A stretch of 64,000 nt of DNA, from contig JAFQBD010000014.1 in assembly GCA_017416795.1 (NCBI GenBank), positions 8,842 to 72,841 on the forward strand, given 5' to 3'. The position numbers were made by a program, and so were the translations under genes. Position 1 is the first letter of the stretch; each line of letters begins with the position of its first letter. Origin of the DNA: Bacillota bacterium (GTDB taxonomy: Bacteria > Bacillota > Clostridia > Peptostreptococcales > Anaerovoracaceae). Below, piece after piece: positions 1 to 6,849 of this stretch. Below the pieces are notes generated by a model. It ran no database searches. It saw only the letters and a program-made list of their open reading frames with translations, and was not told the origin of the DNA.

Positions 1-962
1 GGAAGCTCTATTTCTTTAAGAGATGTACAATCTCTGAATGCTGCATTGCCGAGCTCTGTTACGCCATCAGGGATGTTGACTTTTTCCAGATTGGTGCATC
101 CATAGAAAGTGTATGCCTTGATTGCAGTGATACCTTCCGGAAGCTTTACTTCTGTTAAAGAGGTGCAGTCTCTGAATGCATAGGTGCCGATGGAAGTAAC
201 GCCATCGGGAATTTCAATTTTTTTAAGTGCATAGCATTTATTGAAACAATCCTTCGGAATTTCAGTTACACCGTCAGGAATATTTACTTTTTCAAGGTTG
301 TAACATTTCCAAAATGCCTGCGCAGCGATAGAAGTTACACTGTCAGGGATTTCGATTTCTGTAAGAGATTCGCAACCAGTGAAAGTATTGTTAGAAATTG
401 TTTCTATGCCATCAGGAATATTTACTTTTTTAAGTGAAGCATCATCCATAAATGCATGTCCGCCATAATATGTAACGGTGTCAGGAATCGTTATCTCTTC
501 GAGAAATGTGCACTTTCTGAATGATCCTGCACCAAGTCTTGTGAATCCTGTTTCAGGGAATATGACTTCTGTGATTCCATCGCATTTATAGAATGCATAG
601 TTTCCTGTTGATGTTACACCTTGCTCCAGTACGACTTTTTTAATATCATCTCTGTCATAAAAAGGTGCAATCACAGACATGTCTGTTTTGTCTTTCGAAT
701 TAGGGATATAAATAGTGTCTTCATCTGTGTTATGGCCATAGTTTGTCATTGCTCCGGTACCTGAGATCGTCAGTGTTCCTTCGCTGTCCAGTTCCCATTT
801 GAGCTTAGTGCCGCATGTGCCGCTGTCTACTATAGTTGTTTTTTCAACATTTGATTCAGTGTTTTCAGTAGCATAACTGGACACCGTGCCGTCAGCAAGA
901 TTAAGGCCTGCGAAGAGCATAGCTAAGACCAAAATGATCGCTGCAAAGTGCTTATTGAACAT
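1..962 (-). CDS. BspA-type (LRR_5) leucine-rich-repeat secreted/surface protein, 3' end outside window
   Basis: Manual minus-strand translation. SD AAGGAG precedes ATG at 962. Signal-peptide-like MFNKHFAAIILVLAMLFAG, then SGTCGTKLKWELDSEGTLTISGTG and repeated 23-aa units such as LKKIEIPDGVTSIGTYAFRDCTS. Not in the ORF track because it runs off the edge. Confidence 0.85.
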   Translation of the reverse strand, partial: MFNKHFAAIILVLAMLFAGLNLADGTVSSYATENTESNVEKTTIVDSGTCGTKLKWELDSEGTLTISGTGAMTNYGHNTDEDTIYIPNSKDKTDMSVIAPFYDRDDIKKVVLEQGVTSTGNYAFYKCDGITEVIFPETGFTRLGAGSFRKCTFLEEITIPDTVTYYGGHAFMDDASLKKVNIPDGIETISNNTFTGCESLTEIEIPDSVTSIAAQAFWKCYNLEKVNIPDGVTEIPKDCFNKCYALKKIEIPDGVTSIGTYAFRDCTSLTEVKLPEGITAIKAYTFYGCTNLEKVNIPDGVTELGNAAFRDCTSLKEIEL

Positions 963-1978: not shown

Positions 1979-2032
1979 GAGTTTTCTATAAGAATTCATG
2001 AAAAGAAAATAAATCATTTTATCAAAACCATA

Positions 2033-2066
2033 AAAAGAAGATGCCCATGCGGACATCTTCTTTTTA
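2033..2066. terminator. Bidirectional intrinsic terminator between lexA and the aminotransferase
   Basis: AAAAGAAGATG...CATCTTCTTTTTT hairpin between convergent genes. Confidence 0.7.
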
Positions 2067-2122
2067 TTTTGTATAGGAGTTTTTATGATGTTAATTGACG
2101 GATCTTATGATTTTACGAATCA

Positions 2123-3445
2123 TTAGATCATCTTATCAACGGAGTCTAATACCTTATCCATGATAGCCATCTGTTCTCTCAGCTCTTCTTCAGTGATGAT
2201 GAGAGGAGGAGCAACGATGATCATGTTTTCGTGAGTGTAAGTCCAGAAACCTTCTGCAACCAGCATTCCCAGGATCTTCTTCATCAGACCTTCAGGGTCC
2301 TTTCCGAATGGAACGATAGGTTCTCTTGTTTCCTTATCCTTAACCAGTTCGATAGCGGAGAACAGACCGATGTGTCTAACTTCGCCAACGCATGGATGAG
2401 CATCTACATAACCGTCCAGGATGTCAGCCAGAACTTTGCCTGTAACAGCCATCTTGCCTTCGATATCCTGATCTTTGTATTCCTTGATTGTTGCTACTGC
2501 AGCAGCACATCCCATAGGATGAGCGGAGTATGTAAGTCCGCAGCCAAGAGCAGTATCATCAAAGAACTTAGCGATTTCTTCCTTAACAACAACGCCGCCC
2601 AGAGGAACGTATCCGCAAGTAACGCCCTTAGCGAAAGTGATGATGTCAGGCTGATAATCGAAGTTCATGAATGCGAAAGGCTTACCTGTTCTGTACCAGC
2701 CTGCCATAACTTCGTCAGCTACCATCAGGATACCGTATTTGTTGCAGAGTTCTCTAACGCCTTTATACCATTTAACAGGAGCGATGAGGATACCGTTGGA
2801 ACCAACGATTGATTCCAGCCAGATTCCTGCGATGTTTTCAGGTCCTTCGTACAGGATCTGGTTTTCCAGCAGTTCCAGATAGAAATCAGCCACGTCATCT
2901 TCGTTTTCGAAGTTGCAAGCCTTAGGTGCTCTGTAAGCATAAGGTCCATCGTACTTAACGAATCCAGGACCGCCGGGTTCGTTGAAGAAGTGTCTAGGTT
3001 CGCCTGTCAGCATACCTGCGCCTGCTGATGAACCGTGATAGCATCTGTACTGTGAGAATACTTTCTGCTTGCCTGTGAACTGTCTTGCGATCTTGATAGC
3101 ATTTTCATTAGCTTCAGCGCCTGCGTTTGTGAAGAATACTTTAGCGCCTTTCAGTCCTGTCAGTTCAACTACTGCTTCAGCAGCATCTGATCTGCAGTCC
3201 ATAGCAAATCCCGGTCCCATGAATGGGATCTTCTGAGCCTGTTCACAGATGGCATCGATGATAGCCTTGTTGCCGTGACCCAGATTTGAGTTTACCAGCT
3301 GTGAAGACATATCTGCATATCTCTTGCCGTCTTCGTCCCAGAAGTAGATTCCTTCTGCCTTAGTTACAACGATAGGCTTCAGCGCACCCTGTGCTGACCA
3401 TGAATGAATGTTATATTTTAAGCTCTTTTCTCTAATTGCTGACAT
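2123..3445 (-). CDS. Class III PLP omega-aminotransferase (taurine/beta-alanine/GABA type)
   Basis: HSWSAQ N-terminal motif, DEVMAGWYRTG, PLP lysine in FAKG, GLTYSAHP. Confidence 0.85.
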   Translation of the reverse strand: MSAIREKSLKYNIHSWSAQGALKPIVVTKAEGIYFWDEDGKRYADMSSQLVNSNLGHGNKAIIDAICEQAQKIPFMGPGFAMDCRSDAAEAVVELTGLKGAKVFFTNAGAEANENAIKIARQFTGKQKVFSQYRCYHGSSAGAGMLTGEPRHFFNEPGGPGFVKYDGPYAYRAPKACNFENEDDVADFYLELLENQILYEGPENIAGIWLESIVGSNGILIAPVKWYKGVRELCNKYGILMVADEVMAGWYRTGKPFAFMNFDYQPDIITFAKGVTCGYVPLGGVVVKEEIAKFFDDTALGCGLTYSAHPMGCAAAVATIKEYKDQDIEGKMAVTGKVLADILDGYVDAHPCVGEVRHIGLFSAIELVKDKETREPIVPFGKDPEGLMKKILGMLVAEGFWTYTHENMIIVAPPLIITEEELREQMAIMDKVLDSVDKMI

Positions 3446-3481
3446 TTTATGATCCTCCTTTTTTTCGAAAAAGATAAACTC

Positions 3482-4906
3482 TTATGCATCAACCTTAGCC
3501 TTGATAGCAGCGTCGAACAGTTCTTCGTCTGTTGGCTGGAATGAAGGGATAGGTCTTGAAACGTATGTGAAGTTTAAGAGATCCTTCCAAGTAGCGTTGT
3601 GGGAGATGCTGTTGTGTCCCCAAGTTCCGCAGCCCAGAGTCATGGAGATAGGGAATCCGCAAGTCCATGAACCGGAGTTAGTCAGTGACTGAGGCTGGTT
3701 AACGCAAACCTTACATACAGGAATGACTTCGCCCAGCTTAGTTACTCTTTCAGGCAGTGCAGTGTGGATACCGCAGCTGTGTCCCTTACCCTGATAATCA
3801 AGGATCTTCATCATCTTATCTACTGCATCATCAAAGTCCTTAGCCTTTCTGATACCGGAAACTGGTGACAGCTTTTCGCCTGTGAATGGATAATCATTAC
3901 CATATCCGCCGTTTTCTTCAGCCATCAGCATCTTAGTTCCTGCAGGTACTTCGATTCCTGCTGCCTTAGCAATAGCTTCTGCACCCTGTGCTACGATCTG
4001 TCTGTTCAGGTCGTGGTTAGCAGGTGATTCAGGCCACAGAGTCTTCAGCAGTGCTGCCTTTTCAGCTGAGTCTTCCTTCAGCAGTACAGCGCCTGCCTTT
4101 TCCATAGCAGCTGCCCATGCATCGTAGCATTCTTCTAAAACGATGATGTTGTTTTCTGTTGAGCATGAAGTTGCGTGGTCGAATGACTTTGATCTAACGA
4201 TCATTTCAGCTACTTCATCAAGGTCAGTAGTTCCGTCGATGATGGATACTACGTTACCTGTACCAACGCCGATAGCAGGGTTACCGGATGAGTAAGCCTG
4301 ACGTACCATTGGAGTTCCGCCTGTTGCCAGGATGAAGTCTACCTGCAGCATCAGTTCCTGTGAAGTTTCTACTGATACGTATTCAGGTTCGATAGCCTGT
4401 ACCAGGTCTGCAGGGTAGCCCAGCTTAGCGATTGTTTCTCTGATCAGTGTAGTTACTGCCAGGTTAGTTTTTCTTGCTTTTGGATGTGGAGCCAGGATGA
4501 TAGCGTTTCTTGTCTTCAGAGCCATAAGTGACTTAACTACAGGAGTAGCTTCGCCGTTAGTTACAGGGATGATAGCGCCGATAACGCCCATTGGCTTAGC
4601 GTAAGTTTCCATACCCATCTTTTCATCTACATCGATGAGGCCAACTGACTTCTTGTCTTTCATCTGGAAGTATGAGCCCTTTACCTTACCGTACATCTTA
4701 GCCTGCTTATGTTCAGGGATACCCATTCCGGATTCTTCAACCAGCATTTCACCAAATTTCAGTGCAACTTCAGGTTTAGTTAAAGCGTAAGCAACAGCTC
4801 CTGTAAGAAGATCTACATCCTCCTGAGTAAAACCATTAGCGATTTCCTGAGCAGCTTTTGCCTTTGCTACCAGACTTGCAACGTAATCATGTGAATTCAT
4901 TGTCAT
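3482..4906 (-). CDS. CoA-acylating aldehyde dehydrogenase (sulfoacetaldehyde dehydrogenase SauS-like)
   Basis: IPVTN, ATGG, GVGTGN, catalytic Cys in SKSFDHATSCSTEN, GEKLSP, GHSCGIH, TLGCGTWG. Confidence 0.8.
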   Translation of the reverse strand: MTMNSHDYVASLVAKAKAAQEIANGFTQEDVDLLTGAVAYALTKPEVALKFGEMLVEESGMGIPEHKQAKMYGKVKGSYFQMKDKKSVGLIDVDEKMGMETYAKPMGVIGAIIPVTNGEATPVVKSLMALKTRNAIILAPHPKARKTNLAVTTLIRETIAKLGYPADLVQAIEPEYVSVETSQELMLQVDFILATGGTPMVRQAYSSGNPAIGVGTGNVVSIIDGTTDLDEVAEMIVRSKSFDHATSCSTENNIIVLEECYDAWAAAMEKAGAVLLKEDSAEKAALLKTLWPESPANHDLNRQIVAQGAEAIAKAAGIEVPAGTKMLMAEENGGYGNDYPFTGEKLSPVSGIRKAKDFDDAVDKMMKILDYQGKGHSCGIHTALPERVTKLGEVIPVCKVCVNQPQSLTNSGSWTCGFPISMTLGCGTWGHNSISHNATWKDLLNFTYVSRPIPSFQPTDEELFDAAIKAKVDA

Positions 4907-5003
4907 TTAAGTGTCCTCCTTATAATAATTGTTAAAATTGTTTTGTATTTCATGCAGATGATAGATCCATCTGTGATTCCATACTTGTCTGCCCAATATT
5001 AAA

Positions 5004-5018
5004 GCAATTGCCGTGCCA
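5004..5018 (-). promoter_or_regulatory. sigma54 -24/-12 promoter of the dehydrogenase-aminotransferase operon
   Basis: Minus strand reads TGGCAC-GGCAA-TTGC, an exact match to the sigma54 consensus, about 100 bp upstream of the 4906 start. Confidence 0.9.
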
Positions 5019-5190
5019 AACATTATGTAACTAGTTTACTTTTTTGAAAGAAAAAAATGCCAAGAAAAACGCACGCCTCTAAAACGTTGAAATTCAGCCA
5101 TTCTCATAAGGTGGATAAAAGAATGAATATTGTATACACGAGCTAATGGAGAAGAAAAGTCAAGTATGAAATTTAGAATGTAAAACAAAA

Positions 5191-5307
5191 GCGATACAAA
5201 AATGTATCGCTAAATTGTTATGTTTATGACAAAGCTTTATAAGTGTTGAAAAATGGACATTCTCATACGCGATACAAAACTGAATCGCTGATACAAAAAT
5301 GTATCGC
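5191..5307. promoter_or_regulatory. Three palindromic upstream activator sequences (GCGATACA-N4-TGTATCGC)
   Basis: Perfect copy at 5191-5210, variants at 5269-5288 and 5288-5307, lying 170-290 bp upstream of the sigma54 promoter. Confidence 0.75.
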
Positions 5308-5342
5308 AAATATGTGAATTACATATAAGCAAACTAATTATA

Positions 5343-6731
5343 TCATTCAACACTTGTAAGCTCGTATTTGTGAAGCTTCCTTACTATAGTAGGCTGACTT
5401 ACTTGCAGAGCCTTTGCCATGGCACGCGTTGAACCGTAGTCGGCCAGTGCCTTTTCCAAAATCGACTTTTCTGCCTTTTCCATAGCCTCGGTAAGAGACA
5501 GGTTGACATTGACATTGGCGTTGGTCTTGGCCTCCTGTTTCAGGAAGAGAGGCAGGTTGTCCTCGGTTATCATGCGTCCGTTACTTGTTATGGTCAGTCG
5601 TTCGATGATATTTTGAAGCTCACGGATATTGCCCGGCCAAGGATATTTGAACAGCAGGGCCATCGCTTCCGGACTTATGGTCTTGTCCTCATGCAGCTTC
5701 TCGTTGCATTTGATCAGATTGCTGTGGATAAGAGGAAGCAGATCTTCAGGTCTATCTCTGAGAGGCGGAACATTGATAGGTACAACGTTGAGTCTGTAGA
5801 ATAAGTCTTCTCTGAATTCACCTCGTTTTACCAGTTCTCTCAGCGATTTGTTGGTGGCTGAAACTATCCTTACATCGATAGGAATGGATTCTACACCGCC
5901 AACAGGAGTGATCTCACGCTCTTGGATCACTCGAAGCAAGTTTACCTGCATATTAAGAGGAAGCTCGGATATTTCATCCAGGAAGATAGTTCCATGCTGC
6001 GCAGCTTCAAAAAGTCCGCGCTTTCCTTCTGCACGCGAGCCGGTGAAAGCTCCGGGCATGTATCCGAAGAGTTCGGACTCGATCAGATTTTCCGGGATAG
6101 CACCGCAGTTCACCGTGATGAACGGTCCTTCAGAACGGTTGCCCTCTTCATGGAGAAGTCTGGCGATGAGCCCTTTGCCGACACCTGACTCTCCCGTGAT
6201 CAGCACAGTGGAGTTTACTGTCGCCAGCTTCTTAGTCAGCGACATCACATTCTGCATGGCAAGACTTTCGGCGATGATTTCTGTTTCGCTGAGATCTATA
6301 TCAAGTTCTGATATGTCGTTGACATTTATCAGCGGAGTAGGCGTTATATCGAGAGTATCGTTGCTGACAGTAAGCTGAGTGATATCTCTTGATGTTGTTA
6401 TGATCTTCATTATGCGGCCATCGTCATCGAAAATAGGCATGCCGGTAGTAAGCAGTTTTTTACCATGTCTGTTCTCGTGGATGATGGTGATTTCACGATG
6501 TTCATCAAGAACTCTTTTCGTAACTGAAGGCGAGAAGATCCCTGTGCGCTCCAGCACGTCTACATGTTTGCCTTGTACATCATCAATAGATATATTGTAA
6601 AGTTCTTCGCATGATTTATTGCACCAGATGCAGAATCCGTCCTTATCATCTATAAAGACTGCGTCGGTGAAGCTGTCCAGTATTGGAAGCAGCTTAGATA
6701 ACTTTAAGTTGTCAGAAAAACGATCAGGCAT
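5343..6731 (-). CDS. PAS-domain sigma54-dependent enhancer-binding protein (PAS-AAA+-HTH)
   Basis: PAS N-terminus, Walker A GESGVGK, GAFTG loop, Walker B FLDE, C-terminal HTH. Confidence 0.95.
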   Translation of the reverse strand: MPDRFSDNLKLSKLLPILDSFTDAVFIDDKDGFCIWCNKSCEELYNISIDDVQGKHVDVLERTGIFSPSVTKRVLDEHREITIIHENRHGKKLLTTGMPIFDDDGRIMKIITTSRDITQLTVSNDTLDITPTPLINVNDISELDIDLSETEIIAESLAMQNVMSLTKKLATVNSTVLITGESGVGKGLIARLLHEEGNRSEGPFITVNCGAIPENLIESELFGYMPGAFTGSRAEGKRGLFEAAQHGTIFLDEISELPLNMQVNLLRVIQEREITPVGGVESIPIDVRIVSATNKSLRELVKRGEFREDLFYRLNVVPINVPPLRDRPEDLLPLIHSNLIKCNEKLHEDKTISPEAMALLFKYPWPGNIRELQNIIERLTITSNGRMITEDNLPLFLKQEAKTNANVNVNLSLTEAMEKAEKSILEKALADYGSTRAMAKALQVSQPTIVRKLHKYELTSVE

Positions 6732-6829
6732 GAAAATTCTCCTTCACAGTTATATATTAATAGGTATTAGATACGATTGTTGTATTTACATATCGATTAT
6801 ACGCCTTCTGAAAAAACTTGGCAACTAAA

Positions 6830-6849
6830 ACGATTCAAAAATGTATCGC
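6830..6849. promoter_or_regulatory. Fourth copy of the activator palindrome, upstream of the activator gene
   Basis: ACGATTCAAAAATGTATCGC, two mismatches to the 5191 copy. Confidence 0.65.

Follow-up and report, generated by a model that had tools for sequence, protein, structure and literature searches.

A sigma-54-controlled operon of a Toa-type aminotransferase and a CoA-acylating aldehyde dehydrogenase in Anaerovoracaceae: a candidate module for beta-alanine catabolism through malonyl-CoA

Introduction

What is the function of an operon that pairs a class III aminotransferase with a CoA-acylating aldehyde dehydrogenase (ALDH) and is preceded by the gene for its own sigma-54 enhancer-binding protein (bEBP)? 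The operon considered here lies on the minus strand of a 64 kb stretch of an Anaerovoracaceae contig (the window, whose numbering is used for all positions), from a genome of 1.94 Mb that is 99.96% complete in 68 contigs. The original prediction described a self-contained sigma-54 module for the conversion of an omega-amino acid, by way of an aldehyde, into an acyl-CoA, possibly taurine to sulfoacetyl-CoA, or else beta-alanine or gamma-aminobutyrate (GABA) to the equivalent thioesters. This general scheme holds, and each part belongs to a known family: the switch is of the bEBP/sigma-54 kind, the aminotransferase of the Toa type and the dehydrogenase of the SucD/SauS type. As to the substrate, sequence and gene context lead us to propose that the module serves the catabolism of short beta-amino acids, with beta-alanine the most likely substrate and beta-aminoisobutyrate perhaps a second one. 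We put at roughly 45% the probability that beta-alanine, with or without 3-aminoisobutyrate, is converted via malonate semialdehyde to malonyl-CoA and then to acetyl-CoA and CO2. Beta-alanine is favored because it is the substrate common to the aminotransferase evidence, which points to the taurine family with beta-alanine tolerated, and to the ALDH evidence, which points to an enzyme of the malonyl-CoA type within the superclade of the sulfoacetaldehyde enzymes.

Results

A three-gene module with a dedicated sigma-54 switch

The genes lie head to tail in the order bEBP, ALDH, aminotransferase, all on the minus strand as originally predicted. They and their predicted control elements occupy the following positions:

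5343-6731, minus strand: sigma-54 enhancer-binding protein (bEBP), 462 aa, with PAS sensor, AAA+ and HTH_50 domains
3482-4906, minus strand: CoA-acylating aldehyde dehydrogenase (ALDH) of the SauS superclade, not itself a SauS, 474 aa
2123-3445, minus strand: Toa-family class III aminotransferase (PRK06062), 440 aa
5003-5018, minus strand: sigma-54 -24/-12 promoter, TGGCACG-N4-TTGCT, 112 nt 5' of the ALDH start
5290-5305, unstranded: upstream activator site (UAS) 1, a sequence match, perfect palindrome GATACA-N4-TGTATC
5271-5286, unstranded: UAS 2, one mismatch, 19 bp from UAS 1
5193-5208, unstranded: UAS 3, perfect palindrome, ca. 78 bp beyond UAS 2 on the side of the promoter, which lies a further ca. 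175 bp downstream
6832-6847, unstranded: single activator palindrome GATTCA-N4-TGTATC, a sequence match, just upstream of the bEBP promoter
6796-6824, minus strand: sigma-70-like bEBP promoter, TTGCCA-17-TATAAT, by consensus match only (11/12)
2030-2067, minus strand: strong intrinsic terminator with a 17-bp stem at the operon end, shared with the convergent lexA

The ALDH and aminotransferase genes are separated by 36 bp, and the 436-bp spacer between the bEBP and ALDH genes contains the promoter and three palindromes. The promoter TGGCACGGCAATTGCT (5003-5018, minus strand), predicted to be an exact sigma-54 site, is the sole match in the window against a chance expectation of 0.18, and it is one of only 9 strict -24/-12 sites in the 1.94 Mb genome. 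With at most one mismatch allowed, the palindrome GATACA-N4-TGTATC has five matches in the window versus 0.16 expected. Across the genome it occurs at or near consensus only at the operon and before the bEBP gene, the remaining matches being few, isolated and two to three mismatches away; thus, the predicted bEBP regulon is probably the operon itself. The palindrome at 6832-6847 touches the -35 box of the near-consensus bEBP sigma-70 promoter, the two together spanning 6796-6847, and autoregulation of bEBP via this single site is probable.

Profile searches of the bEBP identified PAS_9/PAS_4, Sigma54_activat (228.8 bits), AAA_lid_14 and HTH_50 domains, with the Walker A motif GESGVGKG. All the parts of a sigma-54/bEBP operon were found, namely an AAA+ domain with the GAFTGS loop, the promoter, the upstream sites and rpoN, which is encoded in the genome. 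The best NCBIfam model is that of PrdR, at 419 bits, below its cut-off of 795. Whichever substrate it serves, the combination of bEBP, palindrome and promoter forms a compact, putatively ligand-responsive sigma-54 switch. The whole genome encodes six sigma-54 activators for its nine strict -24/-12 promoters, one of which (C64:18361) precedes two amino-acid permease genes.

The module is conserved as a unit

The distribution of the module was examined in samples of 120 Anaerovoracaceae genera and 400 genomes of the phylum; 20 family loci were inspected with 10-kb flanks and 80 further loci were added, giving about 100 in all. ALDH orthologs (59-84% identical) are found in 45 of the 120 genera, and the best match outside the family in the phylum sample is 51% identical with no aminotransferase beside it. 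Among named organisms, the closest relatives of the ALDH come from Aminipila, Clostridium aminobutyricum, Anoxybacterium, Lentihominibacter, Anaerovorax and Zhenpiania, and the carriers include genomes from gut (human, mouse, chicken, termite), digesters and sediment. ALDH and aminotransferase are adjacent in every detailed family locus (20/20). A bEBP ortholog lies upstream of ALDH in 13 of these 20 and in most of the 80 further loci, which have the same gene order. Each of the 13 bEBP-bearing loci has a -24/-12 promoter and two or three palindromes, in most cases three, with a pair 19 bp apart and the third ca. 78 bp beyond; all seven loci that lack bEBP have neither promoter nor palindromes. 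Over half of the family lacks the module, a genome of the same genus (G082) among them.

No transporter or CoA ligase adjoins the operon in the window, where the flanking genes encode LexA, desulfoferrodoxin, translation initiation factor IF3 and ribosomal protein L20; the predicted lack of an adjacent transporter or CoA-releasing enzyme is thus borne out. Likewise, no transporter, ligase or exporter lies beside the module in the ca. 100 ortholog loci, where the neighbors reflect housekeeping synteny (LexA, IF3, L20, spoIIGA, sigE/G, MoxR/VWA, LysO).

Some relatives (L134, L139, L146, L155 and L192) have a second sigma-54 activator just past lexA beside the module, accompanied by an Amidohydro_3 protein, a 331-aa protein and an NhaC-type transporter. 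A 32%-identical Amidohydro_3 protein is encoded directly upstream of an aminotransferase homologue in another family (L103, L114, L115). The Amidohydro_3 protein might release the amine substrate from a conjugate. At the start of our window, 3-962 (minus strand) encodes a BspA-type leucine-rich-repeat surface protein that runs off the end.

The ALDH belongs to the acidic-aldehyde superclade but is not a SauS

The ALDH is an Aldedh-family protein of the CoA-acylating EutE/AdhE-N/SucD type. Among NCBIfam models, that of SauS, the acylating sulfoacetaldehyde dehydrogenase (NF047625), fits it best, but the score is 472 bits versus a cut-off of 600. The model hardly distinguishes ALDH from a SucD-like paralog of this genome, which scores 442 bits. 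Proteins that do pass score 650-799 bits, and three such representatives are 39-41% identical to ALDH. In a comparison with 1.84 billion cluster representatives, full-length clusters other than its own reached 47% identity at best, and the clusters bore automatic names or none. The nearest relatives outside the family (46-50% identity), which sit with TRAP transporters and sugar-acid dehydratases, gave no clue to the substrate.

Phylogenetic analysis places ALDH in an acidic-aldehyde superclade (SH-aLRT support 100) to which SucD-like proteins are sister. Within the superclade, the ALDH orthologs group as a separate clade in one half, and the proteins that pass the SauS model lie in the other. 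The predicted relationship to SauS holds at the level of the superclade, but not with SauS proper. The FD.ATSCS.EN and LGCGTWG motifs, on which the assignment as a SauS-type enzyme had been based, are indeed present; however, ATSCS and GCGTWG mark the whole SauS superclade (versus GIIC/GCGSWG in SucD and AdhE) and are not specific to SauS.

The nucleophile Cys248 is invariant, as is His376, and the pocket helix retains four conserved lysines (Lys67, Lys70, Lys74 and Lys76). At position 73, SauS has Arg whereas the ALDH clade has Gly73 together with Lys76, and the loop at 405-415 also differs. Because the equivalents of the carboxylate-binding residues of Clostridium kluyveri SucD (CkSucD) are kept, an anionic aldehyde is the expected substrate, without its identity being specified. 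We tried the CkSucD pocket residues (Lys66/70, Ser243, Thr395) as a discriminator, but they are conserved or conservatively changed and do not separate carboxylate from sulfonate. Two other acylating dehydrogenases of this genome are nearer to CkSucD, at C14:16310-17761 (minus strand, 516 bits) and C1:27462-28823 (plus strand, 432 bits), neither in an obvious 4-hydroxybutyrate cluster. The assembly has no second copy of ALDH.

Relatives carry a second ALDH copy in a putative acyl-CoA carboxylase operon

Three Anaerovoracaceae metagenome-assembled genomes (MAGs) of 4-4.7 Mb carry a second ALDH copy, 71-74% identical to the ALDH of the window, and at least two of the three also have the aminotransferase-linked module. 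In the tree the second copy is nested inside the aminotransferase-linked ALDH clade, and in the active-site segments it differs from the window ALDH by V115I only. It is encoded in the following operon:

L181:7968-17244 with L200:1-9200, also L182/L201 and L175 (large MAGs): second-copy operon encoding ALDH, an AdhE-like fusion of an aldehyde dehydrogenase with an iron-dependent alcohol dehydrogenase (Fe-ADH), biotin carboxyl carrier protein (BCCP; 70 aa, motif ESMKME), biotin carboxylase, EtfB, EtfA and carboxyltransferase

The operon is divergent from a LysR gene and adjoins genes for an enoyl-CoA hydratase, an Fe-ADH, a 527-aa CoA-transferase and an acyl-CoA dehydrogenase. As annotated, all of these genes, those of the operon and the four that adjoin it, can be given a role in a route that connects acetyl-CoA, malonyl-CoA, malonate semialdehyde, 3-hydroxypropionate, acryloyl-CoA and propionyl-CoA, and none has an evident role in sulfonate chemistry. 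The simplest inference from this gene content is that the substrate pair of the ALDH clade is malonate semialdehyde and malonyl-CoA, converted one into the other, or else the methyl-branched equivalents. The operon itself looks like an ATP-dependent route from acetyl-CoA via malonyl-CoA and 3-hydroxypropionate to propionyl-CoA, or its reverse, in strict anaerobes. It also adjoins a MoxR/VWA pair, which in other genomes flanks the aminotransferase-linked module. For the nested paralog the link to malonyl-CoA genes is within the operon; for the window ALDH it consists only of genome-level co-occurrence with an MmdA-type decarboxylase. We propose that ALDH is a malonyl-CoA-forming malonate-semialdehyde dehydrogenase.

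The genome offers a sink for malonyl-CoA

The MmdA-type acyl-CoA decarboxylase is encoded by genes for the alpha and gamma subunits and BCCP at C14:11948-14360 and for the Na+-pump beta subunit (OAD_beta) at C34:32296-33453, and there is no other evident source of its substrate in the genome. PduL and acetate kinase (AckA) are also encoded, as are four members of the butyryl-CoA:acetate CoA-transferase family. Searches of the genome found no methylmalonyl-CoA mutase, 2-hydroxyacyl-CoA dehydratase, biotin carboxylase/acetyl-CoA carboxylase, beta-ketoacyl synthase (KAS) of fatty-acid synthesis, Pta/Ptb or Xsc above cut-off, and no ADP-forming ligase of the SCS type (PF00549) or ACD type (PF13607). 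A decarboxylase lacking an evident substrate source and a module lacking an evident sink would thus fit each other, provided that the product of the module is malonyl-CoA or methylmalonyl-CoA. Other fates were considered and set aside: conversion of succinyl-CoA to propionate (there is no mutase), a role for the decarboxylase as the glutaconyl-CoA decarboxylase of the hydroxyglutarate pathway (no dehydratase was found) and the feeding of malonyl-CoA into lipid synthesis (no KAS was found).

The same association is seen across the family. An MmdA-like carboxyltransferase is encoded in 42 of the 45 module-bearing genera versus 13 of the 75 without the module, the three exceptions being genomes of 77-84% completeness; these and the following figures are raw counts over related genomes that ignore kinship and could reflect clade effects. 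TauE is found in one of 45 module-bearing genera versus 19 of 75 others, and this anti-correlation led us to reject it as a sulfoacetate exporter. A ligase of the SqwKL/SauCD type was likewise rejected as a partner, being absent here, with PF00549 ligases in only 2 of the 45 genera. The beta-alanine alternative in the original prediction is therefore favored, by the ALDH copy in the carboxylase operon, the missing ligases and the distribution of TauE.

The aminotransferase is a member of the Toa family

The class III aminotransferase domain scores 266.5 bits, and the protein passes the NCBIfam model PRK06062 (510 bits versus a cut-off of 472). Among solved structures it aligns over its full length with the taurine:2-oxoglutarate aminotransferase of Bifidobacterium kashiwanohense (BkToa, PDB 6JIX) at 441 bits, with the next structure at 233 bits; it thus belongs to the Toa family, as had been expected. 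In a phylogenetic tree the ALDH-linked aminotransferases form one clade inside a well-supported group that includes Xsc-, Fe-ADH- and amidohydrolase-linked enzymes. Outside the family, homologues of 49-53% identity lie beside a bona fide Xsc (TIGR03457, 776 > 676 bits) and an amino-acid permease, one of 61% beside an Amidohydro_3 protein, and others of 43-62% beside aldehyde:ferredoxin oxidoreductases. A further homologue, 58% identical, is accompanied by an Fe-ADH, a PucR regulator and an ABC transporter, which is the published TauF-Toa arrangement of B. kashiwanohense (PMC6616044). Neighboring Xsc, TauF, IsfD or SarD genes are present in the sister clades and were not found in the ALDH-linked clade.

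The motif HSWSAQ had been taken as a sign of a taurine-type enzyme. It is present, as YN[LV]HSWSAQ, and is common to the ALDH-linked and the Xsc- and Fe-ADH-linked Toa types; GEPR is likewise conserved. Only two alignment columns are fixed differently between the ALDH-linked clade and its relatives, and at one of these BkToa sides with the ALDH-linked enzymes; judged from the alignment, there is no visible change in the pocket. Trp21 and Arg156 of BkToa, which are reported to hold the sulfonate, align with Trp16 and the Arg of GEPRH, both conserved, and these residues could bind a carboxylate equally well. According to its enzyme entry (EC 2.6.1.55), taurine:2-oxoglutarate transaminase also accepts beta-alanine and 3-aminoisobutyrate.

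Locus L102 (2800-15000; genome G481, from another family of the phylum) encodes an activator with 52% identity to bEBP and has a GATACA-N4-TGTATC site and a sigma-54 promoter ahead of genes for a Na+/solute symporter and an aminotransferase of 62% identity. Given two aldehyde:ferredoxin oxidoreductase genes in the vicinity, the aldehyde is probably oxidized to the free acid there. Our genome also has a second aminotransferase copy (C4:2-1132; 84% amino acid and ca. 80% DNA identity), truncated at residue 64 where its 7.5-kb contig begins. This copy may be a paralog or may come from a contaminant of the bin; its DNA identity, evenly ca. 80%, does not point to an assembly break caused by a repeat.

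A proposed pathway from beta-alanine to acetyl-CoA

In the pathway that we favor, the PAS domain of bEBP would sense the substrate or a close derivative, and bEBP would then bind the three GATACA-N4-TGTATC palindromes and open the sigma-54 promoter. The aminotransferase would move the amino group of beta-alanine onto 2-oxoglutarate, yielding malonate semialdehyde, which ALDH would oxidize with NAD(P)+ and CoA to malonyl-CoA, with the CO2 retained. Outside the module, the MmdA-type biotin decarboxylase would convert malonyl-CoA to acetyl-CoA and CO2 with export of Na+, and PduL and acetate kinase would produce ATP. The reaction usually carried out by a single decarboxylating enzyme would thereby be split into two steps and the energy of decarboxylation conserved. 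For this substrate, then, the genome offers a putatively complete pathway whose yield would be acetate, CO2, ATP and a Na+ gradient.

More broadly, the findings may reflect an undescribed energy-conserving fermentation of beta-amino acids that joins a Toa-type aminotransferase, an EutE/SucD-type dehydrogenase and a Na+-pumping decarboxylase, with relatives recruiting ALDH to a 3-hydroxypropionate/propionyl-CoA route; we offer this tentatively, at somewhat less than even odds. Were beta-alanine the substrate, ALDH would be a new enzyme type, a malonyl-CoA reductase of SucD/EutE fold working oxidatively, and the module would account for an otherwise sourceless Na+-pumping decarboxylase in genomes without mutase, acetyl-CoA carboxylase or fatty-acid synthesis.

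Several points weigh against this assignment. No member of the ALDH or aminotransferase clade has a known enzyme activity, and neither a beta-alanine transporter nor a source of beta-alanine was identified in the genome. With two fixed differences only, nothing in the aminotransferase appears to mark a departure from taurine, and its characterized or context-assigned relatives (BkToa and the Xsc- and Fe-ADH-linked enzymes) are all taurine enzymes. The link between module and decarboxylase may be a clade effect, the genomes being related, and G082, from the same genus, has the decarboxylase without the module. Finally, the carboxylase operon was found in three genomes only and its function is read from gene content.

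Alternative substrates and directions

The strongest competitor is taurine, which we consider less likely than beta-alanine. Here the aminotransferase would produce sulfoacetaldehyde and glutamate, ALDH would form sulfoacetyl-CoA, and a CoA-transferase would move the CoA to acetate or butyrate, with excretion of sulfoacetate; the bacteria would draw nitrogen and reducing power from taurine, and the thioester energy would be recovered through acetyl-CoA, PduL and AckA. The aminotransferase speaks for this route throughout, in its 441-bit match to BkToa, its conserved YN[LV]HSWSAQ and GEPR motifs and its sister clades beside Xsc (776 > 676 bits) or beside Fe-ADH, PucR and ABC transporter (PMC6616044), and the four CoA-transferase-family genes could act in the last step. 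SauS is also the best NCBIfam model for ALDH, which has ATSCS/GCGTWG like true SauS, and the acylating sulfoacetaldehyde and 3-sulfopropionaldehyde dehydrogenases SqwD and HpfX feed ATP-yielding steps (PMC11489063, PMC12890257). However, ALDH falls short of the SauS cut-off (472 < 600), lies in the other half of the superclade and has Gly in place of the Arg73 of SauS, and its copy with a near-identical active site shares an operon with biotin carboxylase and carboxyltransferase, for which a role in sulfonate metabolism is not evident. The expected partners are missing as well: there is no SauT, SauCD/SqwKL or Xsc in the ca. 100 loci, PF00549 and PF13607 ligases are absent from the genome (the former being confined to 2/45 genera), and TauE is rare where the module occurs (1/45 versus 19/75). 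Orthologs of the transporters of taurine clusters were not found in the genome, all matches being at most 30% identical. A taurine route would further need a sink for sulfoacetyl-CoA and an exporter. Of the predicted route from taurine to sulfoacetyl-CoA, the Toa-family aminotransferase is supported, and the dehydrogenase step is weakened by the ALDH evidence. Should taurine prove to be the substrate, these bacteria would be an unrecognized gut source of sulfoacetate, which Bilophila wadsworthia respires to H2S (PMC10413351).

A longer omega-amino acid is improbable. The candidates would be GABA, 5-aminovalerate and homotaurine, giving succinyl-CoA, glutaryl-CoA and 3-sulfopropionyl-CoA, respectively; in the 5-aminovalerate variant, glutaryl-CoA would go to glutaconyl-CoA and then to the biotin decarboxylase. 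Carriers of the module are amino-acid fermenters, C. aminobutyricum among them, the ALDH superclade is sister to SucD, and a biotin decarboxylase of the MmdA/GcdA type is encoded in the genome. Moreover, the best model for bEBP is PrdR, the regulator of proline reductase, and proline reduction gives 5-aminovalerate. Nevertheless, the aminotransferase is of the Toa type, with GabT-type structures scoring under half as well, and it retains the residues that, in BkToa, reportedly hold the acid group of a two-carbon substrate. The genome has two nearer SucD homologues (516 and 432 bits to CkSucD versus 289 for ALDH) and lacks a mutase that could use succinyl-CoA; GABA, one of the originally predicted alternatives, is unlikely.

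A biosynthetic role, in which malonyl-CoA would be reduced to malonate semialdehyde and aminated to beta-alanine for pantothenate and CoA synthesis, is very improbable. In its favor, the two reactions can run either way, reductive action in vivo is known for SucD-type enzymes (PMC10249356) and a type III pantothenate kinase gene adjoins the decarboxylase genes. Against it, the genome lacks an acetyl-CoA carboxylase that could supply malonyl-CoA, over half of the family is without the module, and dedicated PAS/sigma-54 activators with upstream sites, of which there are three here, are typical of catabolic operons in Clostridia (PMC6615313).

Comparison with known systems

The switch resembles PrdR and other PAS-type sigma-54 activators of Clostridia in its PAS-AAA+-helix-turn-helix architecture, and PrdR-type systems likewise combine multiple upstream palindromes with a -24/-12 promoter (PMC6615313). 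It differs from PrdR in that bEBP lacks the first ca. 135 residues and in its regulon, and the operon is not listed in the published survey of sigma-54 regulons in Clostridia (PMC6615313).

BkToa is by far the closest solved relative of the aminotransferase, which keeps its N-terminal SW motif and GxxR arginine, and the Fe-ADH context published for the Toa-TauF cluster recurs in the sister clades (PMC6616044). In the Toa/TauF and Xsc systems the aldehyde is reduced to a waste alcohol or cleaved by Xsc, whereas the module would oxidize it to a thioester. The Toa-TauF cluster is under PucR control and includes a transporter; the module, by contrast, has sigma-54 control and no transporter in the cluster. 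We found no description of a Toa paired with an acylating dehydrogenase in the literature searched.

SauS, SqwD and HpfX (NF047625; from C. necator, B. wadsworthia, the sulfo-TK variant and E. gilvus) share with ALDH the EutE/SucD-type fold, the catalytic Cys and His, ATSCS/GCGTWG and a well-supported superclade. They act on C2-C3 aldehydes with an anionic group, a type of substrate likewise expected for ALDH. Unlike SauS, ALDH is never beside SauT, SauCD, SqwKL or Xsc but pairs with the aminotransferase, or with an acyl-CoA carboxylase in three genomes. C. kluyveri SucD (PDB 8CEI-8CEK) is also similar, as an acylating dehydrogenase for a carboxylate-bearing aldehyde whose Lys66/Lys70, Cys242-Ser243 and His364 have conserved equivalents in ALDH (PMC10249356). 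However, ALDH scores only 289 bits against it, has ATS rather than GII before the catalytic Cys and differs by a one-residue insertion in the 395-401 loop.

To our knowledge, known malonyl-CoA reductases belong to other protein families and folds. If our assignment is correct, the natural enzymes of this name (EC 1.2.1.75; Chloroflexus MCR-C and the Sulfolobales Mcr) have the same chemistry, but the ALDH of the module is of the EutE/SucD type and would work oxidatively in a fermenter. In the literature searched, the route from beta-alanine via malonate semialdehyde to malonyl-CoA was found only as an engineered pathway, joining a transaminase to a malonyl-CoA reductase (bioRxiv 10.1101/2025.08.03.668335), and its chemistry would likewise be that of the module. 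The operon would then represent a natural, energy-saving malonyl-CoA route of a kind so far built only synthetically, and would supply metabolic engineers with natural parts for malonyl-CoA and 3-hydroxypropionate routes, which at present are put together from unrelated enzymes.

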